Shown one piece after another: positions 12,592-45,767 of a stretch of 64,000 nt of DNA. Below the pieces are notes generated by a model. It was not told where the DNA came from. It was given only the letters and a program-made list of their open reading frames with translations, and made no database searches. Position 1 is the stretch's first letter. Each line of letters begins with the position of its first letter. The stretch lies in the IMG/VR virus record IMGVR_UViG_3300025585_000037; one strand, given 5' to 3'. The DNA comes from a virus. The translations under genes were made by a program, and so were the position numbers.

Positions 12592-13044
12592 ATGGCAAAA
12601 GACGAAACCGAAGAAGGGATTACTGGACTTCCGATTCCAAAGAAAAAAATGAGTCCCAAAAAAAGACATGAATTTGAAAAGAAAAGAAGAGTAGAAAGAA
12701 AGAAGCGTGGAGATGAAAGAGTTGGAGATACTTTTTCTCAACATAGAATGACTGGTAGTAGAGGTCATGGATCTGAATATGAAGTTAATCCAAGAGTTTC
12801 TTATAGGCATAATGAAGAGTATTTAATTGATTATCTTCTTGGAGAGGGTTTTGCATCTGATGAAAAGTCGGCAAAAGCAATCTCTAGAGCAATGAGTGAA
12901 GAATGGATACAGAGTATTTTTGAAACATTTGCATCTCCTGAAGTTATTCAAAGGGTTAAAAATTCTCCTACTAGAAGACCAACAAAACCTTTTGGTAGCG
13001 AATTGCCAAAACCATCTCAAAGACGAGATGGTCTTATGTATTGA
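12592..13044 (+). CDS. Late protein of the modular acidic-domain family
   Basis: DYLLGEGFASDEKSAKAISRAMSEEWIQSIFE module; TATAAATA at 12566-12573. Confidence 0.7.
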   Translation: MAKDETEEGITGLPIPKKKMSPKKRHEFEKKRRVERKKRGDERVGDTFSQHRMTGSRGHGSEYEVNPRVSYRHNEEYLIDYLLGEGFASDEKSAKAISRAMSEEWIQSIFETFASPEVIQRVKNSPTRRPTKPFGSELPKPSQRRDGLMY

Positions 13045-13095
13045 TAAAACCACTTCCCAAACTGGCACACAAGAGGGTTTCACCACCCTCTTTTT

Positions 13096-15291
13096 TTGTA
13101 TGATGACCTCAAATCGCACAAAACCTCTCAAATGACCGTCAATTACGAAATCAAAGGAATGCTCGCCAAACTCCTGGCGACAGAGGACATTATTATTGAG
13201 CACAAGAAGGTTGAAACCGCCTGCTTCAATGTACATACTCGTGTTCTAACTCTTCCAATCCTGAATGCCAGTAATAATGTCATTGATCTCATGTGCGCTC
13301 ATGAGGTGGGACATTCACGAGAATCTCCTGATATCGACTGGACTAAAACTCATAAAATTCCTCATAGTTTTGTGAATGTTTGTGAAGATGTTCGAGTTGA
13401 AAAACTGATGAAGCGTCGGTATGCAGGTCTTGCAAAGACTTTCTATACTGGTTATAAGGAACTTAATGAACTGGATTTCTTTGATATTGGAGATAAAGAT
13501 GTAAATGAGTTCAATCTTGCAGATCGTATTAATCTCTATTATAAGATTGGTAATCATCTGAATCTGAACTTTAATGAAGAGGAGAAAACAATTGTTGAAT
13601 TGATCGGAAATGCCGAGACCTTTGAAGAAACTCTTGATGCCGCAAAGATTCTTTATGAATATTGTAAAGAACAACATCAGGATGAAATGATTCAAATTGA
13701 TGTTTCGGAATCTCAAGATGGTGGAATTTCAATGGAATTCACTTTCGATGAAAGTGGTGAATCTCCAGATCAAACGATTTCTGGTAATTCTATGCCTCAG
13801 GGTAATTCTATGAATTCTGATGAATCTGAGTCAAGTGATTCGAATGAATCTTCCAATTCTAATCAAACTCAAAATTCTCAGAGTGATGGAATTAATGGTA
13901 GTACTGAAACCGAACAAAAGGATCCAGAAATTAAAACCATGGAATCCTTTGAAAAGGCACTTCAAAATCTGATTTCAAACGACTCTGTTGAAAGTGTATA
14001 CATTGAAATTCCTGAGATTGATATTGATGGAATTATTATTCCAAATTCAGAAATTCATAAGATGTGTGATCAATGTTGGACGAATCCAGATAATTTTGTC
14101 AATGTTGATTTGAAGTATAAAAAATTCCAAAAGGATTCTCAAAAAGAAGTCAATTATCTGGTCAAGGAATTTGAATGTCGCAAGGCGGCAGATTCTTATG
14201 CTCGTGCTACAACTGCAAAAACTGGTGTTCTAGATTGCTCTGCTCTACACACTTACAAATTTAATGAAGATCTATTTAAAAAAGTTACAACTATTGCCGA
14301 TGGTAAAAATCATGGACTAGTTTTCATTTTGGATTGGTCTGGATCAATGGAAGATGTAATGCTCGATACAATCAAGCAACTTTTTAACTTGATTTGGTTT
14401 TGTCGTAAGGTTTCGATTCCGTTTGAAGTTTATGCCTTTACGAATTCTTATCCAAATGATAATTATGATGGCAAAGGCAGAAAAATCCCTAAACGATCCA
14501 CCTATCTTAAAAAAGAAAATGTTTTTCATATTGAAGAAACTTTTTCATTGATGAATATTCTTACAAGTAAAGTTAGTACTTCTGTTCTAGATAAACAGAT
14601 GAAAAACATCTTTCGTCTTGCATCGTATTTCCGTAATAGGTATTACAGTGGATATATCATTCCATATGGTTTGGATACTTCCGGGACACCTTTGAATGAG
14701 ACCATGATTGCTTTGCATCAAATTCTTCCTAAGTTTCAGAAGCAAAATAATCTTCAAAAGGTTCATTGTATTGTTTTGACTGATGGTGAAGGGCATCCAC
14801 TCAAGTATCATAAGGTGTTTAATCGTAAATGGGAGACTGAACCTTTTCTTGGCACTAATTATGTGGATCATGAGTGTTATCTGCGAGATCGAAAGACGGG
14901 AAATACATATCATCTTTTTGGATTTGGTTATGACATGACTGATGTTTTGATTCGCAATCTTCGTGATAAATTTGTGGATATCAGTTTTATTGGCATTCGT
15001 GTACTTGAATCTGGTTATGCTAATAATTTCATTCGTCGTTATACTAAACTTGGAAGTGATGATTATGATAAAGTGACTCGGGATTGGAAAAAAGATAAAT
15101 CCTTTATTCTTAAGAATTCTGGATATCATTCTTATTTTGGATTCGGTTCAAATACACTTTCTCAAAACTCTCAATTTACGGTTCATGATTCTGCATCCAA
15201 ATCTGAGATTAAGAATGCATTTGTGAAGTCTCTTAAAGTTAAACAACTGAATAAAAAAATTCTTGGTGAGTTTATTGAACTTATCGTGTGA
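13096..15291 (+). CDS. Metallopeptidase-like plus vWA protein (CobT-like partner of the MoxR ATPase); probable start 13132
   Basis: AHEVGH (HExxH), DWSGSM MIDAS, SGTPLNE, LTDGEG. Confidence 0.85.
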   Translation: MYDDLKSHKTSQMTVNYEIKGMLAKLLATEDIIIEHKKVETACFNVHTRVLTLPILNASNNVIDLMCAHEVGHSRESPDIDWTKTHKIPHSFVNVCEDVRVEKLMKRRYAGLAKTFYTGYKELNELDFFDIGDKDVNEFNLADRINLYYKIGNHLNLNFNEEEKTIVELIGNAETFEETLDAAKILYEYCKEQHQDEMIQIDVSESQDGGISMEFTFDESGESPDQTISGNSMPQGNSMNSDESESSDSNESSNSNQTQNSQSDGINGSTETEQKDPEIKTMESFEKALQNLISNDSVESVYIEIPEIDIDGIIIPNSEIHKMCDQCWTNPDNFVNVDLKYKKFQKDSQKEVNYLVKEFECRKAADSYARATTAKTGVLDCSALHTYKFNEDLFKKVTTIADGKNHGLVFILDWSGSMEDVMLDTIKQLFNLIWFCRKVSIPFEVYAFTNSYPNDNYDGKGRKIPKRSTYLKKENVFHIEETFSLMNILTSKVSTSVLDKQMKNIFRLASYFRNRYYSGYIIPYGLDTSGTPLNETMIALHQILPKFQKQNNLQKVHCIVLTDGEGHPLKYHKVFNRKWETEPFLGTNYVDHECYLRDRKTGNTYHLFGFGYDMTDVLIRNLRDKFVDISFIGIRVLESGYANNFIRRYTKLGSDDYDKVTRDWKKDKSFILKNSGYHSYFGFGSNTLSQNSQFTVHDSASKSEIKNAFVKSLKVKQLNKKILGEFIELIV

Positions 15292-15328
15292 CTAAATATT
15301 ACTTAGAAAAGTATTTTTTAGTTGTTCC

Positions 15329-16252
15329 ATGACCTCGCATGTAACTCAAGATATCCGCCTCTTATATGAGGCGGTTTATGATCAAGACCTCAGAGAAAAG
15401 GCAGATGAATACAATAATGAAGTATATGATGAAGACATTGTTGAAGTTGCCACCGAATATTTTTACACTTATGGATTAAATTCTGACGGTGTAGATATTT
15501 TAATTGAAAAAGTTGGTCTTGATAACTTTGTTGAATTTGTTTATGGTCTTTCTGATGATCTTGTAGTTCTTACTGAAGCAAGAGCAGCAAAAAGAAGAAA
15601 ACCTGGTGGACCTTCATATGAAGAAGTAAAGGCAAAAACTGATGCTAAAGAAGCAGCAAAGAAAAAAGTAAAAAGATCTGCTGAGGAAAGAAAAGAAACT
15701 GAAAGAAAAGAACCAGAATCTAAAGGTCCTGATACTGAAGCAAAAGCAGAACAACCTAAGTCAAAGAAACCTGTAAGAGATGCAATTGCTCGTAATATTT
15801 TTCGTGCAGTTGATGCTTATAAATCAGGTATGGAGCGTCATCGCCAAGCAACTCAAACTGCTGGTCGTCTTGCTGGCGAAACCGCTAGAACTATAGGAAA
15901 AGTTGTTTCTACTACTCATGAAGCAGGTCGCCGTGCAGGTGAGCATGTTAAAAAGCATGGTCTAAAATCTCTTGCAAATGAAGAGTTTGATAACTTTGAT
16001 ATTATTCTTGAGTACTTAGTTGCTGAAGGGTATGCTGATACTAATCAGGCAGCACTTGTTATTATGGCAAATATGAGTGAAGAGTGGAAGCAGAGTATTG
16101 TTGAGGATCAACCCAGTCCTGCATATGCAACTCAAGGTGGACAAACATATCGAGATTACAACAATGATGGGAAGAGTACTTCACAGATTGCTAGAGAGAA
16201 AAGAATGCAAGAGTTTGCTCTCAAGCGTTCGGCAATATTAAGAGGCGTTTGA
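15329..16252 (+). CDS. Late protein of the modular acidic-domain family
   Basis: LLYEAVY N-motif, ...LVVLTE, EYLVAEGYADTNQAALVIMANMSEEWKQSIVE module; CTAAATA at 15292-15298. Confidence 0.7.
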   Translation: MTSHVTQDIRLLYEAVYDQDLREKADEYNNEVYDEDIVEVATEYFYTYGLNSDGVDILIEKVGLDNFVEFVYGLSDDLVVLTEARAAKRRKPGGPSYEEVKAKTDAKEAAKKKVKRSAEERKETERKEPESKGPDTEAKAEQPKSKKPVRDAIARNIFRAVDAYKSGMERHRQATQTAGRLAGETARTIGKVVSTTHEAGRRAGEHVKKHGLKSLANEEFDNFDIILEYLVAEGYADTNQAALVIMANMSEEWKQSIVEDQPSPAYATQGGQTYRDYNNDGKSTSQIAREKRMQEFALKRSAILRGV

Positions 16253-16348
16253 TAACCACTTTCCAAACTGTCACAGGGGGCACTGACTGCCCCCTTTTTT
16301 GTGTGTATAATAACAGAGTTCAAATGAAACACAACTTTTAACTACATC

Positions 16349-17485
16349 ATGAATCGCAAAATCTCGATGACCGACGAACAACTGATCAGCGAACTTCGTT
16401 CTGCCTTTGGTGCCGAACTTACTACAGCAGATATCAAGGGTTACTGTGCCTCTCAGGATCTTTCCTATCCTACCGTAACTCGCCGCCTGGAACCCTACAA
16501 GACCGATCGTGGTCGTTGGAACCTGGAAGTCACTCAAGAGCGTGTAGAAGAGATTGAACGCTCCTACAGCGCCCCTGCAGTCCTTCCTCGTAGCGAACAG
16601 AATTTTGTTCCTCAAAAGAACTCAACCTTTGTTCCTTTTGGTAGTTTCCGAGATATTAAAAAAATCATCGAGTCTCGTATTTTCTATCCTGTTTTTGTGA
16701 CTGGTCTCTCTGGTAATGGTAAGACTCTTGGAATTGAGCAGGCATGTGCTCAACTTGGTCGTGAACTTGTGTGTGCAAATATCACCATTGAAACTGATGA
16801 ATCGGATCTGATTGGTGGTTATAAACTCGTTGATGGGAATACAGTTTGGGAAGATGGCCCTGTCGTTGAAGCAATGCTCCGAGGTGCCATTCTTCTTCTG
16901 GATGAGGTCGATCTTGCAAGCAATAAGATCATGGTACTTCAGTCCGTTCTTTCTGGTAATGGTATCTACATCAAGAAAATCAATCGTTTCGTAAAACCTG
17001 CTCCTGGTTTTAATATCTTTGCCACAGCAAATACTAAAGGTAAAGGTAGTGATGACGGACGATTTATTGGTACTAATGTTTTGAATGCCGCCTTCTTGGA
17101 TCGTTTTGCCATTACTCTAGAGCAGGAATATCCTTCTGTTTCGGCAGAAACCAAGATTCTTACCAAAAACGCCAAGGTTCTGAATCTTGAAAATGTTGAT
17201 GAATTCATTAAAAAACTCTGCGATTGGGGAGATGTGATTCGTAAAACTTTCTATGATGGTGGTATCGATGAAGTCATTACTACTCGTCGTCTGGTGAATA
17301 TTGTTAAGGCATATTCAATCTTCAACAACAAGTCAAAGGCAATTAAGTATTCGATTTCTGGTTTTGATGATGAAACCAAACAGGCATTCCTGGAACTGTA
17401 CGACAAAATCGATGTTGATTTTCAAATGACTCTAGAAACAGATGAAAAACCTGATGAAGAGGTTGCATCCGATTCACCTTTCTGA
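16349..17485 (+). CDS. cobS: MoxR-family AAA+ ATPase (CobS-like)
   Basis: GLSGNGKT Walker A, LLDEVD Walker B, ATANTKGKGS, NAAFLDRF. Confidence 0.88.
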   Translation: MNRKISMTDEQLISELRSAFGAELTTADIKGYCASQDLSYPTVTRRLEPYKTDRGRWNLEVTQERVEEIERSYSAPAVLPRSEQNFVPQKNSTFVPFGSFRDIKKIIESRIFYPVFVTGLSGNGKTLGIEQACAQLGRELVCANITIETDESDLIGGYKLVDGNTVWEDGPVVEAMLRGAILLLDEVDLASNKIMVLQSVLSGNGIYIKKINRFVKPAPGFNIFATANTKGKGSDDGRFIGTNVLNAAFLDRFAITLEQEYPSVSAETKILTKNAKVLNLENVDEFIKKLCDWGDVIRKTFYDGGIDEVITTRRLVNIVKAYSIFNNKSKAIKYSISGFDDETKQAFLELYDKIDVDFQMTLETDEKPDEEVASDSPF

Positions 17486-17490
17486 TATAA

Positions 17491-17874
17491 TTGGGGAAGG
17501 TAAAAATATGCCTTCCCTTTATGACTGATTCGACTTTTACTATTGATATGACAGAAACTAAAAATCATCTTTGGAAATACAACGAAGATAAAATTCTCAA
17601 GGATGTCGAAGATTATGTGACTAGCACCTATCACGGGCATTACTGTGGCGATGAAGAAGGTTATGATGATATTCAAACTATTGATTTAATGGCAGCAAAG
17701 AAACTTGCCACTTCATTCTGTCAGGCAAACATCCTGAAGTATGGTAGTCGTTATGGTGATAAAGATGGGCGCAATAAGCGTGACCTTCTTAAAGTGATTC
17801 ATTATGCCATGCTTCTGCTTCACTTTGATGGTCATTATTCTCGTCAGAATAATGGTCTTTCAGAATTCCGTTGA
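17491..17874 (+). CDS. Conserved cyanophage hypothetical (DUF3310-like); true start probably downstream
   Basis: YHGHY, FCQANILKYGSRYG.KDG.N..DLLKVIHYA. Confidence 0.6.
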   Translation: MGKVKICLPFMTDSTFTIDMTETKNHLWKYNEDKILKDVEDYVTSTYHGHYCGDEEGYDDIQTIDLMAAKKLATSFCQANILKYGSRYGDKDGRNKRDLLKVIHYAMLLLHFDGHYSRQNNGLSEFR

Positions 17875-17897
17875 TTATAAAAATCTGATATAAAATT

Positions 17898-18563
17898 ATG
17901 AATTTTTCTGAAAATACTATTGCTCTACTAAAGAACTTTGCAACAATCAATAATTCGATTGTTGTAAAGAAAGGTAATGTTCTCCGCACAATTTCTCTTG
18001 CCAAAAATATTCTGGCAGAAGTTGAAATTGAAGAACAATTTTCCCGAGACTTTGCGATTTACGATCTGATTCAGTTTCTGAATGGACTCGCTCTTCATAA
18101 AAATCCCGATTTGGATTTTACAGAAGATAATTATGTTCTAATTCAAGAAGATAAGCGTCGGGTCAAATATTTTTATTCTGATCCGAATGTTATCACTTCT
18201 CCTCCAAACAAAAAAGTTCAACTACCATCAAAGGATGTTTGTTTTCAACTTGACAGTCAAATTCTTGAAAAACTGATTAAGGCATCTTCTGTATATCAAC
18301 TTCCAGATCTTTCTGTAATTGGCAATGATGGTGTGATCCGTCTTGTAGTTCGTGATAAACGAAATTCTTCATCAAATGAATATTCAATTGTTGTTGGTGA
18401 AACTGTAAATAATTTTGTATTTAATTTTAGAGTTGAAAACATCAAGATTATTCCTGGTCAATACGATGTGATTATTTCTAAAGAACTTCTTTCTCAGTTT
18501 GTACATTCGAATTATAAACTTTGTTATTGGATTACACTGGAATCTGATTCCACTTTTGAATGA
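17898..18563 (+). CDS. g45: Sliding clamp gp45
   Basis: LKNFATINNSI, FAIYDL.QFL, FNFRVENIKIIPG.Y, YWITLE.DS. Confidence 0.95.
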   Translation: MNFSENTIALLKNFATINNSIVVKKGNVLRTISLAKNILAEVEIEEQFSRDFAIYDLIQFLNGLALHKNPDLDFTEDNYVLIQEDKRRVKYFYSDPNVITSPPNKKVQLPSKDVCFQLDSQILEKLIKASSVYQLPDLSVIGNDGVIRLVVRDKRNSSSNEYSIVVGETVNNFVFNFRVENIKIIPGQYDVIISKELLSQFVHSNYKLCYWITLESDSTFE

Positions 18564-18991
18564 TGGAATTTCTTCTTTATCTTTCTCCTGATTTGACTGG
18601 TATCTATAATATGGTATCTAGAAAAGTTCGGGTAGTTGAAAATACGCCTGTATGTCGAAAGTATGACATTTTTGGGTTTTATGATTCTAAAACTAAAATC
18701 CTAACAATGTGTACCAATAAAATGAAAAGAAATGGTGATGTTGAGCAAAATGTAAAGGATACTTTACTTCATGAATCAACTCATGTTGCACAATCTTGTA
18801 AATCTGGCGATGGGTTTTTAGAAGACTTTGGTATTGATCCATCAATAATGAAATTAAATTATGAAAGAGAAAAGGCACTCAAAACAGTTGTTGCATTTGA
18901 TTACAAATTGAAAAAAATTGACCGAGAAGCATTTTGGATGGAGGACAAACCTGATAAAGTCAAGTATGTGATTCAAAAGTATTGTTTTTGA
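18560..18991 (+). CDS. Hypothetical with a zincin HExxH motif
   Basis: TLLHESTHVAQ...EREAF-like (IDREAF) downstream Glu. Confidence 0.55.
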   Translation: MMEFLLYLSPDLTGIYNMVSRKVRVVENTPVCRKYDIFGFYDSKTKILTMCTNKMKRNGDVEQNVKDTLLHESTHVAQSCKSGDGFLEDFGIDPSIMKLNYEREKALKTVVAFDYKLKKIDREAFWMEDKPDKVKYVIQKYCF

Positions 18992-19503
18992 TTATGAATA
19001 TCTTCATTACTTCTCCATTTCCAGCAGAGAGTGCAATCGTACTTCCTGACCGTCACATAAACAAAATGCCTCTTGAATGCTGCCAGATGCTTTCCATCGT
19101 AGCATCAAAGTGGTATCATAATTACGGAACACTTCCAAAGAAAGATGGAACTCCTTATGCAACTGAAAAGGGTGCTTTTCGCAATCACCCTTGCACCAAA
19201 TGGGCAGGAGAAAGCATTCATAATGCCTATTGGTTAATCAAACACGGTATGAACCTATGCGATGAGTTTCAACTTCGTTATGGTAAGATTCATTCGTGTT
19301 ATAATACTCTTCTTCAGGCATATTATCTTTTCCCAAAGGGGAAGATTACAGAAGTAACTCCATTTGCTCGTGCTATGCCTGATGAATGGAAACACGATAA
19401 TACTATTGATACATTTGAAGCATACAAGAGGTATATCGCATCCAAACCTTGGGTGAAAAACAATTACCTTCGTATACCCGAAAGACGGCCTTCGTGGATT
19501 TAA
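18982..19503 (+). CDS. Pyrimidine-dimer DNA glycosylase (DenV-like) family protein; probable start 18994
   Basis: MNIF.....P..SA..LPDRH..KMPLE..QML, HPCT.W, FARAMPDE. Confidence 0.7.
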   Translation: MFLIMNIFITSPFPAESAIVLPDRHINKMPLECCQMLSIVASKWYHNYGTLPKKDGTPYATEKGAFRNHPCTKWAGESIHNAYWLIKHGMNLCDEFQLRYGKIHSCYNTLLQAYYLFPKGKITEVTPFARAMPDEWKHDNTIDTFEAYKRYIASKPWVKNNYLRIPERRPSWI

Positions 19504-19506
19504 ATT

Positions 19507-19722
19507 ATGACACTTATTGAAACTATTGATGAATGTATAAAACAAATTCAAAGTGAACTTAAAAGTTGGAAATGCGTAAAAGATAATCAACTGTATTTTG
19601 AATCTAACTTTGGTACATTTAACGATGTGACAAAAGAAGAAGTGTGTGATAATATTCTTTTGTATCAAAAACATCTTGATAATCTCAACCTTCTTAAAAA
19701 AGATCTAAATTATGACAAGTGA
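19507..19722 (+). CDS. Hypothetical protein
   Basis: 71-aa ORF tightly packed in the operon. Confidence 0.55.
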   Translation: MTLIETIDECIKQIQSELKSWKCVKDNQLYFESNFGTFNDVTKEEVCDNILLYQKHLDNLNLLKKDLNYDK

Positions 19723-20656: not shown

Positions 20657-20859
20657 ATCCATATAAGATTGATTATAAGTCATTAAAAGAAATACCTGTA
20701 AAAACAACTCCCGAAAATGTAAAAGAGGCGAATGAGGGTCTTTTTCGTTCTAAAATGACTCTTCCTGCTGCCGCAAAGCATTGTGGTATGACACAGAAAG
20801 AAATGAAACTCACATTCTTTGAATACTTGAAGTATAATAAACCTGATTATGAAAATTAA
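20653..20859 (+). CDS. Small hypothetical (possible HTH)
   Basis: MTLPAAAKHCGMTQKEMKLTF. Confidence 0.6.
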   Translation: MNPYKIDYKSLKEIPVKTTPENVKEANEGLFRSKMTLPAAAKHCGMTQKEMKLTFFEYLKYNKPDYEN

Positions 20860-21400
20860 AAAAGACTGGAAAGCATATTGCAAAACATCTTTTAGATCAC
20901 TGAATGCAAATCAAGAAGATTGGGGAAAACCAAACTACTATCGTCCAATTACTAGAATTTATTATATTAGTGTATTTGATTGTGGACTTACTAATTTTAC
21001 AGGTTTAATAAGCAAAGAAGCATTGGATAATAGACTTAATGGTAAAAAAGTTGTTTATGATCATTGCCTTTCTCCTCAGTTTGTTGGAAGAATGATCATG
21101 GATAATCCAGATAGATATCTTTCCAAATATTCTGTCTATGAGGAACTTTTTTGGGAATCATGTAAAACTGTTATGGTTACTCAAAAGGAGAATTTTTCTC
21201 TTTCTGCACTAACAGAAAATAATGGACAAGACTTTTTAATTCATGTTCCCACGAATAGAAAATATAATCATTTAGGAATTGATCTTTGGTTTCGCCCTCA
21301 AAAAAATTGTAGGTGGAAGGAATCAGTACCTTTGGATACAAATATAATAGAAACTCCAGAAGATCTGCTAGAATATGAAAAAAAGTTTTTGGTTTCGTGA
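20849..21400 (+). CDS. Hypothetical protein
   Basis: 183-aa ORF overlapping both neighbours. Confidence 0.65.
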   Translation: MKIKKDWKAYCKTSFRSLNANQEDWGKPNYYRPITRIYYISVFDCGLTNFTGLISKEALDNRLNGKKVVYDHCLSPQFVGRMIMDNPDRYLSKYSVYEELFWESCKTVMVTQKENFSLSALTENNGQDFLIHVPTNRKYNHLGIDLWFRPQKNCRWKESVPLDTNIIETPEDLLEYEKKFLVS

Positions 21401-31328: not shown

Positions 31329-32687
31329 ATGAAAACTTTTCTTCAATTTATTACCGAGGCAACTGGTGCATCTGTTCAGGCAAAAAGACTTGGACTTGTA
31401 GGCGATGGTCATGGTGGTTGGTATAATAGAGCAACAGGTGAATTTGAGGCAAAGACTGTTGGCGGGCAATTAAAATATTATAATAAGAGACAAATTATTG
31501 GTGGTAAGGATCCAAAGCAAGGTGAATTCGAGAAAAATATTCCTCTTGGATCCGCATATCCAACTCCATCGCAACAACAGGTTCCAGTTCAGGCGCAACA
31601 ACAAGAACTTCCACCTCAACAAGAAGTACCTCCACAACAGGAACCTTTACCTCAAGAAGAACCTATTCCACAAGAACCTCCAGTATTTACTCCACCTCCT
31701 GTTGAAAAAACAAAAGGTTCTCTGACAATTGCATTTGGAAGATTTAATCCTCCAACAATTGGACATCAACAGTTGATGGATACTGCGGCAATGATATCTC
31801 AAGAGGATGGCAGTGATTATATCATTGTCCCATCAAGAAGTTTGGATAAAAAGAAAAACCCATTAGATCCAGATACAAAAATATCTTTAATGAGAAGAAT
31901 GTTCCCGGATCACAGTGAAAGAATTGTTAATGATCCTAATTGCATTACAATTTTTGATGTTCTTAAAAGAGCACACAATGATGGATATTCAAGTATTAGA
32001 ATTGTTGCGGGTTCCAGTAGAGTAAAAGAATTCGAAAAACTTGCCAATAATTATAATGATCAATTGTATCAATTTGATTCAATTGAGGTTATTCCCTCAG
32101 GAGATCAAGATCCAGATGGTAATGGAATGGACGGAGTATCTTCATCAAGATTAAGACTTGCCGCAGCAGAAGGTGATTTTATAACTTTTAGAACAGGTCT
32201 TCCTTCAACAATCAAAAATAAAGAAGCAATTCAATTATTTGATATGGTTCGCCAAGGAATGGGTATTCAAGAAATTCAACAAGAGGGATATAACACTTGG
32301 GAAATTGCACCAAAATATGATCAACAATCTCTTCGTGAAAATTATGTGAATGGTAGAATTTATAAAGTTGGAACACTTGTCGAAAATCTAAATACTGGTC
32401 TTAATGGAAGAGTTATTCGTAGAGGTACAAATCATTTAATTTGTGTAACCGAAGATGGTATTATGTTTAAGTCCTGGATTAAGGATGTAAAGGAATCTTA
32501 TTCAGAAAAACATATGGATAATATGATGAGACTTCCTGGAAAACCAAATACTTTAGTGGGGACACTAGGTGCATTTAAATATGCATCCATGATGACTCCT
32601 GGTGCAATTGGAATGGGTGCAGAAAATCTGCAAGTAGGTGGAAAACCTTATGGTATTAATTTCATAAATAAAAAAAGGAAAAAGTAA
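31329..32687 (+). CDS. Cytidylyltransferase-like (HIGH superfamily) protein
   Basis: FGRFNPPTIGH motif, SSSRLR..AA; N-terminus MKTFLQFITE; CATAAATA at 31271. Confidence 0.8.
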   Translation: MKTFLQFITEATGASVQAKRLGLVGDGHGGWYNRATGEFEAKTVGGQLKYYNKRQIIGGKDPKQGEFEKNIPLGSAYPTPSQQQVPVQAQQQELPPQQEVPPQQEPLPQEEPIPQEPPVFTPPPVEKTKGSLTIAFGRFNPPTIGHQQLMDTAAMISQEDGSDYIIVPSRSLDKKKNPLDPDTKISLMRRMFPDHSERIVNDPNCITIFDVLKRAHNDGYSSIRIVAGSSRVKEFEKLANNYNDQLYQFDSIEVIPSGDQDPDGNGMDGVSSSRLRLAAAEGDFITFRTGLPSTIKNKEAIQLFDMVRQGMGIQEIQQEGYNTWEIAPKYDQQSLRENYVNGRIYKVGTLVENLNTGLNGRVIRRGTNHLICVTEDGIMFKSWIKDVKESYSEKHMDNMMRLPGKPNTLVGTLGAFKYASMMTPGAIGMGAENLQVGGKPYGINFINKKRKK

Positions 32688-32705: not shown

Positions 32706-34367
32706 ATGAAAAAGAAGCATATTGCAGAGGATCTTCCTTCTAGACCTCATCCACAGGCATCACTCTCTTCACAATCAAAACCAAGTGGTGGTGGAGAAAG
32801 AGATGAGAAAAGAGGATCTGAAAAAGGCGGTGAAAGCACTCCTGATAAGAGAATTCGTCAGGCAGTCTATGACATTAAATATCGTGCAAGAAGAGAGAAC
32901 GTACCTCTTCGTACCGCATATTCTCAATATATGCAAAACAGTTCAATGAGTGAAGTTGAAAAATCTGAAGTCAGAAAAAGACTTTTTGGTGATGGAGGAA
33001 GTAGTGGTGGAAATGCAATGAGAGCAGAAGATTTTGATATGGAAATGAAAGATTTTGCATCTCATTCGATGATGAATGCTCTTTATAAGGTATTTGTTGA
33101 AAAAACAAATTATATTGATGAGGATCAACTTAGGAAAGAATTACAAGAAGGTCAAGAGGGTTCAGGTAAAAAATATAAAGTAAGAGTTCATGATCCAGAT
33201 AGTGGTGTCACCTATGTAAGATATGCGACTCGTGAAAAAATTAATCAATTGAGGGCAAAAGGTCTTGATGTTGAAATGACCGAGTATGGCACCCCTTATG
33301 AAGGCGAAAGAAAAAAAGGCGAAAAAACATCTGAAGTATTAGGTAAAAAGGCAAAAAAAGATTATGATGGCGATGGTAAAATAGAAAGTGGTGCAAAAGA
33401 ACATGCTGGTGCAGTTCATAATGCAATTCAGCGTAAAAAGGGAGGAGTACCTGATGGAAAAGATACTTCAAGTGTAAAGGAATCATATTTTTATGAAGTT
33501 TCAACTCTTGCAAATTTACCACAGGTTGATTCTTCGGAGTATGTAAATCCAAATGCAAATCAAAATCAAATTGATTTGGCAACAAGAAAAAATAAAATCA
33601 CAGTAAATCCACCTGATAGTAGAGGTGTAAATGCATCAAATAAGTATAATAGCGCCTTGATGGCACATCATGTTCCTGATGGTGAATTCATTTCTGAAAA
33701 TGGTTATTCTAGATTTCTTAATTTGTTGCAAGAAAAAAAGATGACTGCAACAAAAAAGAAGAAAGAGAAAAAACTGAAGCAAAAATATGATCCTTCTGGC
33801 ATGAAAGCGAGTATGCAACAACAGTATGGAACCGAAAAGGGAAAAAAGGTATACTTTGCCACGATTCGTAAGCAGGCAATGAAAGAAGAATCTGAATGTG
33901 GATGTGATGATAAAGAAGATAAAAGATCTCTTCCTACAAAGGTTAGTCTTGTGAAATCTAAATTTCAATCAATGGGAGTAAAAAATCCCATTGTTATGGC
34001 AGCATCTTATGAACCAGAAGGTGATCAAATCAATGAAAGAGCAAGAGCAAGAAAAGGAGAACCAAGAACTAGTTTAAGTCCTGCTATGAGAGAAGTTAGA
34101 AGAACAACTCCAGGAATTATGACTAGGGGTGGAAGAACAGTTGAACAACATAAAGCAGAAAGAGGTGTAGGAAAACTTGAAAAGCAAAAAAATGAAAGAA
34201 CTGAAGACCCTCAAACCGGGAAAAAAGTGAGAAAAAGACCTGCTAGTGCCGGACCAACACCCGCACAAAAAGTTGCTCAAAGAAAACCAAAACCAGATCC
34301 ATTCCCAAATGATGTATATTCTGTAGATTCTACAGGTGGTATTAGAGGATATAGATCTGGAGACTGA
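32706..34367 (+). CDS. Large late hypothetical, probably head-associated
   Basis: CATAAATA at 32663; basic low-complexity segments; DYDGDGKIESG and SYEPEGDQINE motifs. Confidence 0.65.
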   Translation: MKKKHIAEDLPSRPHPQASLSSQSKPSGGGERDEKRGSEKGGESTPDKRIRQAVYDIKYRARRENVPLRTAYSQYMQNSSMSEVEKSEVRKRLFGDGGSSGGNAMRAEDFDMEMKDFASHSMMNALYKVFVEKTNYIDEDQLRKELQEGQEGSGKKYKVRVHDPDSGVTYVRYATREKINQLRAKGLDVEMTEYGTPYEGERKKGEKTSEVLGKKAKKDYDGDGKIESGAKEHAGAVHNAIQRKKGGVPDGKDTSSVKESYFYEVSTLANLPQVDSSEYVNPNANQNQIDLATRKNKITVNPPDSRGVNASNKYNSALMAHHVPDGEFISENGYSRFLNLLQEKKMTATKKKKEKKLKQKYDPSGMKASMQQQYGTEKGKKVYFATIRKQAMKEESECGCDDKEDKRSLPTKVSLVKSKFQSMGVKNPIVMAASYEPEGDQINERARARKGEPRTSLSPAMREVRRTTPGIMTRGGRTVEQHKAERGVGKLEKQKNERTEDPQTGKKVRKRPASAGPTPAQKVAQRKPKPDPFPNDVYSVDSTGGIRGYRSGD

Positions 34368-36025: not shown

Positions 36026-36036
36026 CAATAGGAATC

Positions 36037-36393: not shown

Positions 36394-36406
36394 TGACTAC
36401 ATCATA

Positions 36407-39672: not shown

Positions 39673-39679
39673 GAAAAAT

Positions 39680-40861
39680 ATGGATTTTAATTTTAAAACA
39701 AATAACGATAAGAAACCCATGGTCGAATCTATGACTGTTTTTAATCCCAATGAAGTAGACACCAAAAAGCAACCAATGTTTTTTGGACAACCATTAGGAA
39801 TACAAAGATATGATTCTTATAAGTATCCAATTTTTGATAAACTAACAACACAGCAACTGGGATATTTTTGGAGACCAGAAGAGGTTTCACTTCAAAAGGA
39901 CCGTGGAGATTATCAATCTCTTCGACCTGAGCAGAAACATATTTTTACTAGCAATCTCAAGTATCAAGTGATGTTGGATTCAGTTCAGGGTCGTGGACCT
40001 GGTATGGCATTTGCTCCATACTGTTCCCTACCCGAACTGGAAGCATGTATGAAGGTATGGGAATTTATGGAGATGATTCATTCCCGTTCATACACTTATA
40101 TCATCAAGAACGTTTATTCAGACCCATCTGAAGTTTTTGATACGATTCTGAAAGAAGATAGCATTATGGAACGTGCTGTGAGTGTAACTCAAGCATATAA
40201 TGATTTTATTAATAGTGCTCATCATTATGATAATTCGAGTGAGTGGATTCACGCTTTAGAACAAGTACCTTACGCACGAGAGGCAAGGTATGAACTCAAA
40301 CGCAAACTCTTTAGAGCAGTTGCAAACGTTAATATTCTTGAAGGTATTCGCTTTTACGTCAGTTTCGCTTGTAGTTTTGCATTTGGCGAACTTAAACTTA
40401 TGGAAGGAAGTGCAAAAATCATCTCACTAATTGCTCGTGATGAGAACCAGCATCTGGTTATCACTCAAAACATTTTGAATAAGTGGAAAGAGGGGGACGA
40501 CCTTGAAATGACACAAATCGCTAAAGAGGAGGAGCAATGGTTCTACAAGACCTTTGAGAATGCTGTAAATCAGGAAAAACTTTGGGCCGAGTATCTATTC
40601 AAGGATGGTTCGATGATTGGTCTGAATGACAAACTGTTACAACAGTATGTTGAATGGATTGCAAATCGCAGAATGAAGGCAATTGGACTTAAGCCACTTT
40701 ATGATATTTCTGCAAAGAATAATCCACTCCCTTGGACTGAGCACTGGATTTCTTCTAAAGGATTGCAAGTAGCTCCCCAAGAGACGGAAATCGAAAGTTA
40801 TGTAATTGGTGGAATTGCACAAGATATGAAGACCGATGCATTTGCAAACTTCAAACTATGA
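39680..40861 (+). CDS. nrdB: Ribonucleotide reductase beta subunit
   Basis: FWRPEEV, EMIHSRSY, LEGIRFYVSF, IARDENQH, QETEIESY. Confidence 0.97.
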   Translation: MDFNFKTNNDKKPMVESMTVFNPNEVDTKKQPMFFGQPLGIQRYDSYKYPIFDKLTTQQLGYFWRPEEVSLQKDRGDYQSLRPEQKHIFTSNLKYQVMLDSVQGRGPGMAFAPYCSLPELEACMKVWEFMEMIHSRSYTYIIKNVYSDPSEVFDTILKEDSIMERAVSVTQAYNDFINSAHHYDNSSEWIHALEQVPYAREARYELKRKLFRAVANVNILEGIRFYVSFACSFAFGELKLMEGSAKIISLIARDENQHLVITQNILNKWKEGDDLEMTQIAKEEEQWFYKTFENAVNQEKLWAEYLFKDGSMIGLNDKLLQQYVEWIANRRMKAIGLKPLYDISAKNNPLPWTEHWISSKGLQVAPQETEIESYVIGGIAQDMKTDAFANFKL

Positions 40862-41010
40862 ACCCTAAAATACTCAAACAAGACTCAAATTATGATGAAT
40901 GGTGTGAACAAGAAATTCTAAACGCATATAAACAAGCAGCAGAATCTGATGAGTTCTTGTTTGGTGATTATGATTATGAAAAAGAATGGATGATTTCTGA
41001 GGGACTTTAA
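40858..41010 (+). CDS. 50-aa acidic hypothetical (not in ORF track)
   Basis: Hand translation MNPKILKQDSNYDEWCEQEILNAYK...; ATGA overlap with the nrdB stop. Confidence 0.55.
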   Translation: MNPKILKQDSNYDEWCEQEILNAYKQAAESDEFLFGDYDYEKEWMISEGL

Positions 41011-41058
41011 GTCCCTCTTTTTATAAATAAATTTAGACTTAAAACATACAATAAAAAG

Positions 41059-41664
41059 ATGTCAAGACTTACTGGAACTGATGCTCTAGGTTTAATGGAG
41101 GCATATAATGAAGTTTATGTTCCTAGAGAACTCACAAATGAACAAGTAGAACTTTATGATATTATTTTCTCACATCTACTCGATGAGGGTTATGCCACTA
41201 CTGAAGATGGTGCGCTTGCAATCATGTCTAACATGAGTGAGAATTGGGTCCAGAGCATTGTTGAAGGTATTTTAGGTAGTGGAACTGGATTTTTAGGATC
41301 AACTGCCGCAGAACTTGGGGCAAAAGGTGGTCACGATGTTCTTCCTTGGAATCGGAATACTAGATATACAACTACAGGTAGATTAAGGAGACCAGGTGAA
41401 AATATTAGAGGTGAAAGAATTTTAAATGATCCTAACCGAGGTACAACAACAATGAGAATGGGTGGACCAGTACCTCCAGGTGCCAGAGTCAGCAGACAAA
41501 CTCCTCCACCTAATCCATATCTTCAAGGTGGAAGAGTTGGAGTTAGTCCTGCTCCAGTACAAAGACCAAGAACACCTCTAGTTTCGAGAAATGTACCTAA
41601 ACCAACAGGCGGATCTGGTGGATCTAGTGGACGTGCTTCAACTAATTATGGTAGAGGTTTCTGA
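41059..41664 (+). CDS. Late protein of the modular acidic-domain family
   Basis: MSRLTGTDALGLMEAYNEVY plus HLLDEGYATTEDGALAIMSNMSENWVQSIVE, then Gly/Pro/Arg cargo; TATAAATA at 41022. Confidence 0.75.
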   Translation: MSRLTGTDALGLMEAYNEVYVPRELTNEQVELYDIIFSHLLDEGYATTEDGALAIMSNMSENWVQSIVEGILGSGTGFLGSTAAELGAKGGHDVLPWNRNTRYTTTGRLRRPGENIRGERILNDPNRGTTTMRMGGPVPPGARVSRQTPPPNPYLQGGRVGVSPAPVQRPRTPLVSRNVPKPTGGSGGSSGRASTNYGRGF

Positions 41665-41748
41665 TACTTAACAAGAATAATGCCAAGAGGGTCAATAAGA
41701 TCCTCTTTTTTCATAAATAAAAATATATAAAAAATTAAAAGAGAAACA

Positions 41749-42849
41749 ATGTCAAGACTTACTGGAACTGATGCTCTAGGTTTAATGGAGGCATATAATG
41801 AAGTTTATGCTTCACAAGAACTTACTGAAGAGCAAGTATGGGAAGAAGTTGAATCCTGGGTCAATTCACTTGTAGAAGAAGGTTATGACCTTAGTGATTA
41901 TACTTGGGATGATCTTTATGAAGGATACCTTACAGAAATTTTAGGTATGCCTGGTGCCCAAAATTTTGGCGCTAATCTACGTCAACAGTTTGGACAAGCA
42001 CGTAGAGCAGTTGGTGGAAATATTTCTGGTGCTCTTGGTCGTTTTACAGATGCTGTAGGTTCTGGGTGGAGGGGATACACTGGACAAACTACTACTTCTA
42101 GAAATCCAGAAGCACGATTTCTTAATGCCTTTACTAGAAATGTAACTGCTCAACCAAGAGCAGCAGTTTCTGCTCTTGGTGGATTTTTGAGTGGACAACC
42201 AGCATCCTCTTCTAGACCATCTTCTTCTACAAGATCTGCTGCACCATCAAGACCCGCTCCAACTGCTGCACCATCAAGACCCGCTCCAACTGCTGCACCA
42301 CCAAGACCCGTTCCAACTGCTGCACCACCAAGACCCGTTCCAACTGCTGCACCACCAAGACCCGTTCCAACTGCTGCACCATCAGGTCCTGCTCCAATTG
42401 CTCCCTCTTCTATTGAAAGAAGAATTCCAACTTCTGCTGAACTTAGACAAGCACAGCAACTTAGAGCAACAGGTGCAAACTTGACTGGTACTGGAGCACT
42501 TGCAACTGGACCTGCAACTCCTGCTCCTGCTGCAGCAACAACTACTGCTCCTGCTGCTGCACCAAAACCAAATCTTCAGCAACAAATCAGACAGCGCAGA
42601 TTGAATATGGATTTAGATCTTTTTGACATCGTAAAAGGTTATCTGATCGATGAAGGTTATGCCGAAACCGAAGAGGCAGCAGCAGTGATTATGGCAAATA
42701 TGAGTGAAGATTGGAGAGATCAGATTCTTGAGTCTGGATACTTTCCAACAAGAGAATCACAAATGAAAGATGAAGCGAAGTATAATCTTAGAGGTCAAGC
42801 TGTAAAACCAAGAACTGTTCAGACTCAATCTACAAGACCATCTAGATAA
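41749..42849 (+). CDS. Late protein of the modular acidic-domain family with a Pro/Ala repeat
   Basis: Same N-motif; EEGYDLSDYTWDDLYEGYLTE and DEGYAETEEAAAVIMANMSEDWRDQILE modules. Confidence 0.75.
   Translation: MSRLTGTDALGLMEAYNEVYASQELTEEQVWEEVESWVNSLVEEGYDLSDYTWDDLYEGYLTEILGMPGAQNFGANLRQQFGQARRAVGGNISGALGRFTDAVGSGWRGYTGQTTTSRNPEARFLNAFTRNVTAQPRAAVSALGGFLSGQPASSSRPSSSTRSAAPSRPAPTAAPSRPAPTAAPPRPVPTAAPPRPVPTAAPPRPVPTAAPSGPAPIAPSSIERRIPTSAELRQAQQLRATGANLTGTGALATGPATPAPAAATTTAPAAAPKPNLQQQIRQRRLNMDLDLFDIVKGYLIDEGYAETEEAAAVIMANMSEDWRDQILESGYFPTRESQMKDEAKYNLRGQAVKPRTVQTQSTRPSR
42241..42402 (+). repeat. Six tandem 27-bp coding repeats (AP[S/P]RP[A/V]PTA)
   Basis: gcacca(t/c)caagacccg(c/t)tccaactgct x5 plus one degenerate copy. 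Confidence 0.95.
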
Positions 42850-42927
42850 TTAATAAGAATAATTTTTTAAAGAGGGTCTAACCAACCCTCTTTTTTTTTA
42901 TAAATAACTAAAAAGTAAGAAAGAAAA

Positions 42928-44262
42928 ATGAAGTCCTTTAGTCAATTTTTGCAAGAGTCATATTTAAGTGAAGAAATACCTGCTGGTATGACTAGAGCAC
43001 AGTATAATGCTTTACCATCAGCATCTAGAAGAAGATTGGGTGGAAGTAACGCTGCTTATGGTAAAAAAGGACAAACTTTACAGGGTTCTGCTGCTGATCT
43101 ATCAATTAGATCTGCAAGAAAAGAAATAAATCCACAAGGGAAAACTACTAAAGTTAAAAGTCCTACAAGAGGTGGTGACATAGTTCCATATAGTGCTCCA
43201 CCTAAACCAACAGCACCTGCATCTGCACAGTCAGCACCTCCAAAACCAGCAGCAATTGTAAAAGCATCTCCCTCAACTCCTGCAACAACTCCAGAAATCA
43301 AACCAGTTTCTGTAAGTGATGTAACTCCAAAACAAAAAGCACTTCCTGCTGCAAAACCAGCAGCAGCAACTGCCACTGCATCTTCTTCAACTATTAAACC
43401 TCCTGCACCAGCACAACTTCAGTCAACTAATGCAAGAAGAGCATCTGCTGCAGAAAGATTAAAAAGAGCAGCTGCTGGAACTGGACCAAGTGGAAAAACA
43501 ATTGTAACACCAACAAGACAAGCGGCAAAAGCAACAGACACCGCATTAACTGCTGCAGGAAGTGCATCAAGATTAGGAAAATTTTCAAAATTTGCAGGTC
43601 CAGCATCTGCAGTACTTGATACTGCATTATCTACTGCAGATGAAAGAGCAAAAGGATCTGGATGGGCTAGATCTCTTGCTAAAGGTGCCACAGTCGCCGC
43701 AGGAGGATTGCTTGGTGGTGCTGCGGGAGCAATTGGTGGTGGAGGTATCTTGAGTGCTGCTACAGGAACTGTTGGTGCCCTTGCAGGAGGTGCTGCTGCA
43801 GAAAAGGCATTTGATACCATTGCTGGAGCAAATGCAAAAGAAAGAGCAGCAATGGCAAAAGCAAACCGCCAGAGTCAAGCAGGAACCACTATTAAAGGTA
43901 TTGGTGGTCCAACATCATTTAGTCAGAAGAAACCAGGTGGACCAGCATTTATGTCAACCGGTGTTGGTAAACAAAGAAAAACTGTTCAACTTGCCAAGAC
44001 TGGCGTAGTTAATAGAGGTGGTCAATCAGTTGCAGGTCATCTTGCATTTAAGGGTGGTAAAGCAGTTTATAAGGCAGGTCCAAGTGCTCAATCTCTTGCC
44101 AAAACTTCTTCGAATCCATTAGAAAGAATTGGAAGAACATTTTTTGCTGGAGCATATAAACAACACGATGCTGCAAAAGCACAACAAGCACTACAAAGAG
44201 CAATCAGATCTGATGTGGAGCGTAATAAAAAACTTGGCGTAAAATATAAACCAGGGGGTTGA
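42928..44262 (+). CDS. Late Ala/Lys-rich protein with a capsid-targeting-like N-terminus
   Basis: MKSFSQFLQESYLSE; glycine-zipper-like GGLLGGAAGAIGGGG; TATAAATA at 42899. Confidence 0.7.
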   Translation: MKSFSQFLQESYLSEEIPAGMTRAQYNALPSASRRRLGGSNAAYGKKGQTLQGSAADLSIRSARKEINPQGKTTKVKSPTRGGDIVPYSAPPKPTAPASAQSAPPKPAAIVKASPSTPATTPEIKPVSVSDVTPKQKALPAAKPAAATATASSSTIKPPAPAQLQSTNARRASAAERLKRAAAGTGPSGKTIVTPTRQAAKATDTALTAAGSASRLGKFSKFAGPASAVLDTALSTADERAKGSGWARSLAKGATVAAGGLLGGAAGAIGGGGILSAATGTVGALAGGAAAEKAFDTIAGANAKERAAMAKANRQSQAGTTIKGIGGPTSFSQKKPGGPAFMSTGVGKQRKTVQLAKTGVVNRGGQSVAGHLAFKGGKAVYKAGPSAQSLAKTSSNPLERIGRTFFAGAYKQHDAAKAQQALQRAIRSDVERNKKLGVKYKPGG

Positions 44263-44303
44263 TTTTTATAAATATCTGTATATAAAAGCACTAATTCATA
44301 ACC

Positions 44304-45767
44304 ATGTCTAGAGTTTCGCAAGGTTCCATTAATGATATTGCATATCTATATGAAGAAATTAATATTCAACAAAATGATTTTTTGAATGAAGAGTCTGAAT
44401 ATTATGATTCCGAAACGGCAGAAATAGTAGAAGATATTCTTTCTACTATTTCAATTTCAATGGTTTATGAGGGATATAGTGCCGAAGGTATTATTGGATT
44501 TCTTTCTAATTCATCTGAAGAAATTATTATTGAAAAATATTTAAATTTTAATGAAAATATCCTTACAGAAAGTACAGTTCCTGAAGATTATATTTTAGAA
44601 CAGTTGGAAATTTTTGATATTGCAATTGATGAAGGTATAGCATCACTAATTACAAGAGTTGCAAAAGGTGCTTTAGGTCTTGCAAAAAGAGCGGTAACAA
44701 AACCTGCAAGAACTAGAGTATCTAAAATACTATCAAATGCGAAAAACCCAGAAGAAGCAAGAAAAATGCTTCAGAGAGTTGCTCAAAATTCTGCAAGGAA
44801 ATCTAATGTTGGTGGTTATAGTTCTACAATGTCTCCAGTTGGAGGTGGTAAATTAACAGGAAGACAATCTGCAGAATTACTGACAAAAGCAAAAATAGGA
44901 CAAGCAGTTAAAAAAGTAAAAGATATTGCTAAAAGTGCAAAGGCGGCATTAACAGGTACAACAGCAAAAAGAATTCTTAAAGGCGTAGGAATTGTTGGAT
45001 TGGGTGGATTAGGTGGGTATCTTGGCGCAAAACTGGCAGGTGCCGGAAGTGGTGGGCAAGAACAAAAACCATCAAGTTCTCAAAGAGCAGATCAACCTTC
45101 AACACCACCAGCGGCGCCTAGAGGGGGTTCAGGGGTACCTTCTGGAGGTGGCGGTGGTAGAGGCGTTACTCCTTCTGGAGGCGGTGGAGGGGCAGGGAGA
45201 GGTACTCCACAAAGAAGAACTCCACAACCATCAGGACAGACTGGTGACAAAGAAAAAGATATGGAGACCTGGGCAAGAGCAAATCCAAAACTCGCCGCAA
45301 GAGTAAAACCAGGACAAGCAGGTTATGATGTTATTTCAAGATTAAGAGATAAACCAAGTGATTATGAGAAACAGGATCAAACTCCAACTCAAGGATCACC
45401 AACTGCTCAAATAAATCCCAGTTCTGTACAGGCAGATATTGAAGCAGAAAAAGAAAGAATGAGAAAAAGAGAAGAACAACAAAAAAATAATGCAACCACA
45501 ACTACTAAAGAATCCTATGAACCTTATGACATTATTTTAGAGTATTTAATTGGAAAAGGTCATGCAGATACGATTGACGAAGCAAATTATATCATGATGG
45601 AAATGGATCAGAATGCCATTGGAATTATCATGCAAGAATACAATGATTATTTACTTGCTGAGCAAGTATCTGAATGGGTTGATGAACTTTTAGGGGAAGG
45701 TTATGATCTTTCGGATTATACATGGGATGATATCGTTGAATATTATGTGACTGAAGCAAGAAGATGA
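44304..45767 (+). CDS. Late protein of the modular acidic-domain family
   Basis: EYLIGKGHADTIDEANYIMMEM and GEGYDLSDYTWDDIVEYYVTE modules; Gly-rich hydrophobic segment; TATAAATA at 44267. Confidence 0.72.
   Translation: MSRVSQGSINDIAYLYEEINIQQNDFLNEESEYYDSETAEIVEDILSTISISMVYEGYSAEGIIGFLSNSSEEIIIEKYLNFNENILTESTVPEDYILEQLEIFDIAIDEGIASLITRVAKGALGLAKRAVTKPARTRVSKILSNAKNPEEARKMLQRVAQNSARKSNVGGYSSTMSPVGGGKLTGRQSAELLTKAKIGQAVKKVKDIAKSAKAALTGTTAKRILKGVGIVGLGGLGGYLGAKLAGAGSGGQEQKPSSSQRADQPSTPPAAPRGGSGVPSGGGGGRGVTPSGGGGGAGRGTPQRRTPQPSGQTGDKEKDMETWARANPKLAARVKPGQAGYDVISRLRDKPSDYEKQDQTPTQGSPTAQINPSSVQADIEAEKERMRKREEQQKNNATTTTKESYEPYDIILEYLIGKGHADTIDEANYIMMEMDQNAIGIIMQEYNDYLLAEQVSEWVDELLGEGYDLSDYTWDDIVEYYVTEARR

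Follow-up and report, generated by a model that had tools for sequence, protein, structure and literature searches.

A dispersed family of modular late proteins in a T4-like cyanophage: candidate head proteins with gp21-type junctions

Introduction

What do T4-like cyanophages carry in their heads? These phages count among the ocean's most abundant viruses, and to our knowledge the contents of their heads beyond shell and DNA are almost unknown. The question is raised by five genes in a 64,000-nucleotide stretch of viral DNA (IMG/VR record IMGVR_UViG_3300025585_000037, hereafter the window), located between positions 12,592 and 45,767 and encoding different combinations of the same acidic modules joined to basic segments. 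A sequence-only reading had proposed that the acidic modules direct these proteins to the prohead core and that the prohead protease gp21 releases the basic parts as cargo. The evidence presented below leans towards a related account, in which the five genes are paralogues within a large cyanophage family of late virion proteins that are likely located in the head and trimmed by gp21.

Judging from its gene content, the window derives from a T4-like cyanomyovirus. Among named phages it comes closest to S-SRM01, a freshwater Synechococcus phage, and a search for near-identical DNA in this group returned at best a 1.2-kb stretch with 80% identity to S-SRM01. In T4, the internal proteins IPI, IPII and IPIII, as well as Alt, combine a capsid-targeting sequence with processing by gp21 (Mullaney and Black 1996, reviewed in PMC9026906). 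A gp21-type protease gene is likewise located beside those of gp22 and gp23 in the window:

647..1294, plus strand: gp21 prohead protease (Peptidase_S77; Pfam E 1.6e-35, and alignment with T4 gp21)
1336-2535, plus strand: gp22 scaffold (T4_CASP; profile match)
2582-3994, plus strand: gp23 major capsid protein (profile match, and alignment with T4)

As had been pointed out from the sequence, these head proteins themselves show the T4 pattern, gp23 having SFLSE where T4 has SFLTE/A (an oblique stroke marks the position of a cut, here and for candidate cuts below) and gp21 starting with MKLITE, compared to LLIE in T4.

Results and Discussion

Five genes assembled from common modules

The five genes, referred to by their start positions, and one further member of the cluster are laid out as follows:

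12592..13044, plus strand: gene 1, 150 aa; N-terminal part basic, followed by module A and a basic tail; no N-terminal leader
12808-12924, plus strand: module A of gene 1, residues 73-111, ending SIFE
15329..16252, plus strand: gene 2, 307 aa; leader ending LLYE/A at residue 14
15980-16105, plus strand: module A of gene 2, residues 218-259, ending SIVE
41059..41664, plus strand: gene 3, 201 aa; leader MSRLTGTDALGLME/A; Gly/Pro/Arg-rich basic tail
41140-41265, plus strand: module A of gene 3, residues 28-69, ending SIVE/GILG
41749..42849, plus strand: gene 4, 366 aa; leader identical to that of gene 3
41827-41937, plus strand: module B of gene 4, residues 27-63, ending YLTE/ILG, followed by a disordered Pro/Ala/Arg linker
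42209-42424, plus strand: tandem repeats in the linker of gene 4, six 27-nt copies with 73-100% identity
42607-42732, plus strand: module A of gene 4, residues 287-328, ending QILE/S, followed by a short tail
42928..44262, plus strand: cluster member outside the earlier five, 444 aa, net charge +45
44304..45767, plus strand: gene 5, 487 aa; acidic helical N-terminal domain to AIDE110/GIASLITR
45510-45641, plus strand: module A of gene 5, residues 403-446, running straight into module B
45651-45755, plus strand: module B of gene 5, residues 450-484, ending YVTE/ARR-stop

In 15329 an acidic helical N-terminal domain reaches to VLTE83/ARAAKRRK and is followed by a basic disordered middle part, while the basic middle of 44304 comprises a glycine-zipper stretch (residues about 228-250) and a Gly/Pro-rich region. 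The protein of 42928 opens with the leader MKSFSQFLQE/SYLSE/E, after which comes an Ala/Gly/Pro/Lys-rich body that also contains a glycine-zipper hydrophobic stretch.

Module A, an acidic element of 44 residues, is common to all five open reading frames (ORFs), as the sequence-only reading had it. A hidden Markov model (HMM) of the five copies retrieves exactly these (E 1e-23 to 9e-27), and a search with it of the six-frame translation of the 64 kb window, in which the module copies were counted, gave no sixth copy (next match E 0.06). The copy in 44304, already described as divergent, departs furthest from the others, with 23% identity to the first sequence, and module B, with the consensus W..L..EGYDLSDYTWDD..E.Y.TE, is located at the N-terminus of 41749 and at the C-terminus of 44304. 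In an AlphaFold2 model of the 41749 protein, built with 64 homologues, the leader forms a helix (residues 6-20), module B a helical hairpin (27-43 and 53-64; predicted local distance difference test, pLDDT, 81-84) and module A three helices (291-301, 308-317 and 320-328; pLDDT 87-91), the remainder being disordered. Folded alone, module A reaches a pLDDT of 91, and it is predicted with confidence to be a three-helix bundle.

Module A has no match in Pfam, its best hit among PDB sequence profiles is not significant (E 1.8), and a Foldseek comparison with PDB folds returns generic helical segments only (best E 2.4). Its Atlas neighbours are viral hypothetical clusters only, and in a library of viral models only cyanophage proteins match by Foldseek. 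The family is large: an exhaustive profile search, taking in 1.84 billion cluster representatives, returned 4,208 proteins with E<=1e-3, 2,444 of them with E<=1e-10, a family of about 4,200 clusters. The proteins are 56-600 residues long and carry one to three copies of the module in an N-terminal, internal or C-terminal position. Among named phages, S-SRM01 and S-CRM01 have four copies each, S-SCSM2R three and S-SCSM1 one; the module is also found in ACG-2014f, S-CAM7, B3/B23 and DSL-LC02/03, and P-SSM2 and S-T4 match it by structure in the viral model library. Three PHROG families of unknown function (3708, 22522 and 27516) match 15329, 41059, 41749 and 44304 via modules A and B and the leader; in their entries the proteins are neither assigned a function nor dissected into domains, nor connected with virions or processing.

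The view of a mosaic, shufflable family was borne out by the position of module A, which occurs anywhere in the proteins and in one to three copies, and by a leader shared beside different modules. The genes 41059 and 41749 are identical over 61 nt, from the ATG to codon 20, then split abruptly into module A and module B, respectively, and share sequence again (ATTTTAGGT, encoding ILG) right after the junction Glu. The C-terminal tail is variable as well, 44304 stopping three residues past VTE while its S-SRM01 orthologue continues with a 58-residue basic tail. The leader identity of 41059 and 41749, the repeats, the variable tail and the positional freedom of module A together support a reading of these sequences in which recombination shuffles the combinations of leader, module and segment. 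The repeat unit in the 41749 linker encodes P-S/P-R-P-A/V-P-T-A-A, in a region that is fast-evolving and prone to slippage. Many homologues end at module A, with no cargo downstream of it.

The description of all five as late-promoter genes holds for four of them. An exact [TC]ATAAATA is located 26-37 nt upstream of 12592, 41059, 41749 and 44304, and also upstream of 42928 and gp22, while 15329 is preceded only by ACTAAATA, a probable late promoter. As in the case of the T4 internal proteins, late promoters (four of the five genes) and a gp21 of the S77 type occur in the same genome. The promoters of the cluster are:

12566-12573, plus strand: TATAAATA before 12592, at -26
41022-41029, plus strand: TATAAATA before 41059, at -37
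41712-41719, plus strand: CATAAATA before 41749, at -37
42899-42906, plus strand: TATAAATA before 42928, exact late promoter
44267-44274, plus strand: TATAAATA before 44304, at -37

Junctions between acidic modules and basic segments

The module ends listed from the sequence alone (IFE, IVE, LTE, ILE and VTE) are all present, and most are followed by a basic or Gly/Pro-rich segment; the statement fails at two places in 44304, where module A runs into module B and where the final VTE is followed only by ARR and the stop codon. The largest switch from acidic to basic charge in each protein falls on an [ILV]-x-E. Wherever module A is followed by further chain, [ILVM]-x-E is found (60 of 60 distinct junctions), in 50 cases at the canonical position and in ten re-created one or two residues later, in forms such as ILDE, ILNE and IIVE, the Ile of the module end being invariant. 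Where module A ends the protein, the Glu is lost in nine cases out of nine (IIG, IIQ, IITA, IIKSI and IVDASV among the endings). The rule was replicated with 144 independent cluster representatives, in which 160 of 167 internal junctions, but only five of 15 terminal ones, have the motif, re-created one or two residues on in 25 cases. The Fisher P values of 2e-11 (first set) and 6e-9 (replication), to be set against a background in which the motif follows 24% of all Ile, are optimistic as the sequences are related to each other. Conservation of the terminal Glu across homologues, on which the cleavage proposal depended, is therefore found where chain follows the module. As the Glu is absent at protein ends and kept at joints, it appears to be dispensable for the fold.

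The details of the motif point in the same direction. The end of module B reads Y (96%), [LI] (88%), x (entropy 2.7 bits) and E (96%), and conservation collapses at P1', the residue after the Glu. At three types of junction (the end of module B, the tag of 42928 and the leader), P2 is free while P3 and P1 are fixed. In the AlphaFold2 model, disordered chain adjoins the last helix of both modules, which ends at E328 in module A and at residues 63-64 in module B. Taken together, these comparisons support the view that the junction [ILV]-x-E behaves as a motif under its own selection rather than as a part of the fold, as a cleavage signal would predict, and make it moderately probable that the proteins are cut at the junctions.

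One alternative is that [ILV]-x-E is a structural helix end, and that the proteins remain uncut and work in full-length form, being either disordered DNA-binding proteins that are packaged or late proteins of the cytoplasm that co-purify with virions. The motif does lie inside an amphipathic helix, the whole module is strongly conserved, and the high background after Ile in these acidic proteins is as such a model would have it. Against this stands the loss of the Glu from protein-ending modules (nine of nine, then ten of 15), which indicates that the fold does not need it, and the return of the motif one or two residues later where the Glu is lost internally. Neither the freedom of P2 between fixed P3 and P1 nor the length and P1' Ala that the leader has in common with the T4 tag fits a purely structural role, and the uncut alternative is considered improbable.

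Leaders, targeting tags and the role of the acidic modules

An N-terminal motif had been noted at the start of 15329, 41059 and 41749; it is present in all three and is recognizable also in 44304 (IAYLYE/EINI), giving four of the five genes a leader. In a survey of 144 independent module A proteins (cluster representatives), it starts 73 of the 101 that begin with Met and have at least 200 residues. In the 80 leaders found, the Glu is located at residue 11 (52 leaders) or 14 (22), with Leu at P3 in 73, Glu at P1 in 72 and Ala at P1' in 72. The leader thus ends in an [IL]-x-E motif of the cleavage type, as judged from sequence, which is also how the leaders of T4 internal proteins end.

In the T4 tag, residues 4 and 7 direct targeting while residues 8 and 10 direct processing (PMC9026906), and as read from NC_000866, IPII and IPIII start with MKTYQEFIAE/A and IPI with MKTFKEF. 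When every start codon of the window was scanned with the pattern MK[ST][YF].[EQ]F[ILVT].[ED], exactly two ORF starts matched, that of 42928 and that of an enzyme gene:

31329..32687, plus strand: cytidylyltransferase/NMNAT-like enzyme, with leader MKTFLQFITE/A and a Gln/Pro-rich linker

Both have the canonical tag with aromatic residues at positions 4 and 7, a pair that the five listed genes lack. The 42928 tag, MK[ST]F.QFL.E, is kept in 109 of 120 homologues, with L8/E10 and L13/E15 fixed and both P2 positions variable. Intermediates towards the canonical tag are found in S-SCSM1 ORF89 (MDSKTFNSLSE/AY) and S-CRM01 g95 (MSNFLYSLQE/SYLEVYE). From the sequence of the 31329 tag, this phage appears to use the T4 targeting logic. 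The leader has a fixed length and an L-x-E/A end, and it grades into the T4-type tag of 42928 and 31329; for these reasons it seems to correspond, in cyanophages, to the 10-residue capsid-targeting sequence of T4 and to be a more likely address tag than the acidic modules. The proposal that the modules themselves are targeting cassettes fares less well, the leader being the better candidate and module A occurring also as a free-standing protein, and an address function of the modules is rather doubtful.

Some related arrangements were seen in named phages. In S-CRM01, g95, g94 and g93 (L017:2968-3862) form a late operon of three genes downstream of psbA, behind TATAAATA; g95 consists of a leader and basic tail only, and g94 and g93 of module A and basic tails. 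This layout indicates that the elements of the family can be split over separate small genes. The 69-residue virion protein ORF93 of S-SCSM1 (L021:11627-11836) has a C-terminal RTFKEFLEYIE that resembles a targeting tag.

The free-standing module A proteins are 52-57 residues long, and their existence implies a role of the module's own and not only that of a cargo tag. Across clusters at 50% identity, conservation reaches at least 90% at residues likely to lie on the surface, and module A probably binds a fixed partner, again more than would be expected of a tag. Such features would also fit an explanation in which the acidic modules are a working part of the prohead core or scaffold, pairing or oligomerising and helping to build the core as T4 gp67 and gp68 do, with the basic tails as accessories and any processing by gp21 serving to clear the core. 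One of the free-standing proteins is encoded directly downstream of gp23 in S-SCSM2R, and T4 gp68 is laid out alike, with an acidic helical half before a very basic tail. On the other hand, a number of family genes that ranges from 0 to 5 among related phages would be unusual for an essential part of the core, and the basic segments, which no lineage has lost, account for most of the mass. The T4 gp67 and gp68 genes also belong to the late head cluster and encode small acidic helical parts with charged tails (strongly basic in gp68), while the cyanophage genes differ in number between phages and are not part of the gp20-gp23 block. Homology between module A and gp67 or gp68 was rejected, hhalign finding no sequence relation (probability 0.2%). 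A predicted complex of module A with the C-terminal domain of gp22 scored 0.21 (mark 0.32) and gives no evidence either way. A core function in place of the trimmed-protein account is considered unlikely.

Presence in virions

The trimmed-protein account requires that the family reaches the particle, and here S-SCSM1 is informative. Mass spectrometry of this phage identified 45 virion proteins, of which 13 have no known function (PMC9602691); the supplement lists the ORFs, without peptides. Its ORF89 (323 aa), named 'virion protein' in GenBank and UniProt after that study, has the complete architecture: the leader MDSKTFNSLSE/AYAAVY, basic segments, a module A ending ILDE/ARR and a basic tail, with a late-promoter-like AATAAATA upstream. 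Its module A is recognized both by profile (E 2e-8) and by structure (template modelling (TM) score 0.91 and root-mean-square deviation 0.6 A to the model). ORF89 is the first of five consecutive virion proteins (ORFs 89-93), among them the NMNAT-like enzyme. Homologues of 31329 have been detected by mass spectrometry in virions of both S-SCSM1 (MKSFLQFLKE/A) and S-CREM2 (MKNFSSFLTE/A). It is likely that the five-gene family is packaged in the virion.

Several observations, in addition to the relatedness of the sequences behind the junction statistics, weigh against packaging or trimming. Only one homologue with module A, S-SCSM1 ORF89, is tied to a proteome, and module A was not found in S-SZBM1 or S-CREM2, two phages for which proteomes are available. 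Mass spectrometry of CsCl-purified particles can pick up abundant late proteins that co-purify, as the authors of the S-CREM2 study noted, a caveat that applies equally in favour of uncut, co-purifying proteins. The leader is lacking in 12592 and in many short family members, some of which are probably truncated gene calls. A Glu at the C-terminal end of a helix, ahead of a linker, might be explained structurally, for example by capping or solubility. Avoidance of the site within the basic segments, finally, failed to replicate. The basic segments of six window proteins (12592, 15329, 41059, 41749, 42928 and 44304) comprise 1,407 residues with 57 Glu, and contain no [ILV]-x-E where 6.5 would be expected (P 0.0003), with the reverse and neighbouring motifs at expectation. 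In 16 non-redundant homologue linkers the count was seven, with 7.0 expected, a result that also favours a structural helix end. The control motif [ILV]-x-x-x-E is equally absent from the window segments (0, with about 6.4 expected). Site avoidance was consequently dropped as support.

The glycine-zipper segments raise a further alternative, according to which those of 44304 and 42928 would, in ejected membrane-active or tail-associated proteins, provide a host-envelope channel or anchor at DNA delivery, with the modules serving to assemble that complex instead of loading the head. Hydrophobic Gly/Ala-rich stretches are indeed present in both proteins, but in only these two of the six in the cluster, and 42928 bears a head-type targeting tag. 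Such a role is very improbable as a separate explanation; it would be compatible with packaging in the head, and so refines the trimmed-head-protein account more than it competes with it.

A proposed pathway and its relation to known systems

According to the account favoured here, each protein would consist of a leader (11-14 residues, L-x-E/A), acidic helical domains (the three-helix bundle of module A, the hairpin of module B and other acidic helices that are less well conserved) and basic, disordered, fast-evolving segments. The precursors would be made late in infection and enter the prohead core via the leader, the acidic modules or both. There the leader and each module would be cut off by gp21 (647-1294), after the Glu of their terminal [ILV]-x-E, and the acidic domains would in this way be separated from the basic disordered peptides, which would stay with the DNA. 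For the released peptides the sequence-only reading suggested roles in DNA condensation or against host defences; that they act against host defences is at best a slim prospect. A broader form of the same idea makes modules A and B a second, tag-independent head-loading system, in which small acidic docking or pairing domains would connect whatever chain they carry to the prohead core before gp21 removes them. Recombination at leaders and junctions would let ocean cyanophages exchange disordered basic payloads, with thousands of variants as the outcome, and these payloads would travel with the DNA and affect the host, for instance through DNA shielding or counter-defence; this too is unlikely.

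The claim that such a system goes beyond the internal proteins of T4 does not hold in principle, the logic being that of the T4 targeting sequence and gp21 and of the inner-body paralogues of giant phages (PMC9026906). Like the T4 internal proteins, the family is encoded by late genes, has a short N-terminal leader ending in [IL]-x-E/A, has basic mature parts and varies extremely in content between related phages; the near-canonical tag MK[ST]F.QF[IL].E of 42928 and 31329 adds to the likeness. The family appears to follow the T4 internal-protein logic with four differences: in the five-gene set the leader is longer (11-14 residues), with no aromatic pair at positions 4 and 7; folded acidic modules are present, which the T4 proteins lack; candidate sites are located at several internal junctions, giving the precursors the appearance of polyproteins; and the basic parts form long stretches that are disordered and low in complexity. 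No sequence homology was found between the five-gene family and any T4 internal protein. In the literature searched, no link was found between the capsid-targeting sequence and cyanophages, save for a passing mention in a T4 review.

The giant phages phiKZ, 201phi2-1 and SPN3US have paralogue families of inner-body or ejection proteins together with a gp21-like protease (PMC9026906, PMC5694885). These are similarly dispersed, with propeptides removed after the Glu of a three-residue motif and with redundant sites. Their motif is, however, S/A/G-x-E, whereas P3 is Ile, Leu or Val in the window, as in T4. The folds and the lineage also differ, a Foldseek search of viral models found no domain common to module A and the giant-phage proteins (only cyanophage proteins matched), and the family does not belong to the giant-phage group.

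Neighbouring genes

Past gp23, the window holds UvsW, gp47/gp46, a CobT-like protein, CobS, a primase and NrdAB, and synteny with S-SRM01 extends over NrdA, NrdB, a small ORF and three hypothetical genes. The gene 15329 is located between those of the CobT-like protein and the CobS/MoxR protein, a slot occupied in S-SCSM2R by another module A gene, ORF141. Other genes of the surroundings are:

4043-5551, minus strand: 502-residue ORF after gp23 with an HTH_38 motif; local GC low (28%)
13096-15291, plus strand: CobT-like protein with a vWA-type DWSGSM motif (phrog_459)
16349-17485, plus strand: CobS/MoxR AAA+ ATPase
32706-34367, plus strand: 553-residue, Lys-rich protein, mostly of low complexity, with the start MKKKHIAE/D, directly after the tagged enzyme gene 31329
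45911-46333, minus strand: SegE-type GIY-YIG homing endonuclease, just downstream of the cluster and on the opposite strand

The endonuclease gene and the ORF at 4043-5551 are possible mobile insertions. The 32706 protein matches PHROG 3326, of unknown function, and has no significant similarity to the virion protein ORF92 of S-SCSM1 (E 0.14).

Implications for cyanophage heads

If the trimmed-head-protein account is correct, a domain family of about 4,200 clusters that has no database entry would mark proteins that are loaded into the head and trimmed there. Two sequence rules, L-x-E/A closing a leader at residue 10-14 and [ILV]-x-E closing the acidic modules, would then predict packaged or delivered proteins from genomes and metagenomes, and would explain the hypothetical proteins and the NMNAT-like enzyme that recur in cyanophage virion proteomes. 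A tag for loading foreign proteins into cyanophage capsids could also come of it. The targeting and processing logic described for T4 would in addition be extended to a distant branch of the T4 superfamily.

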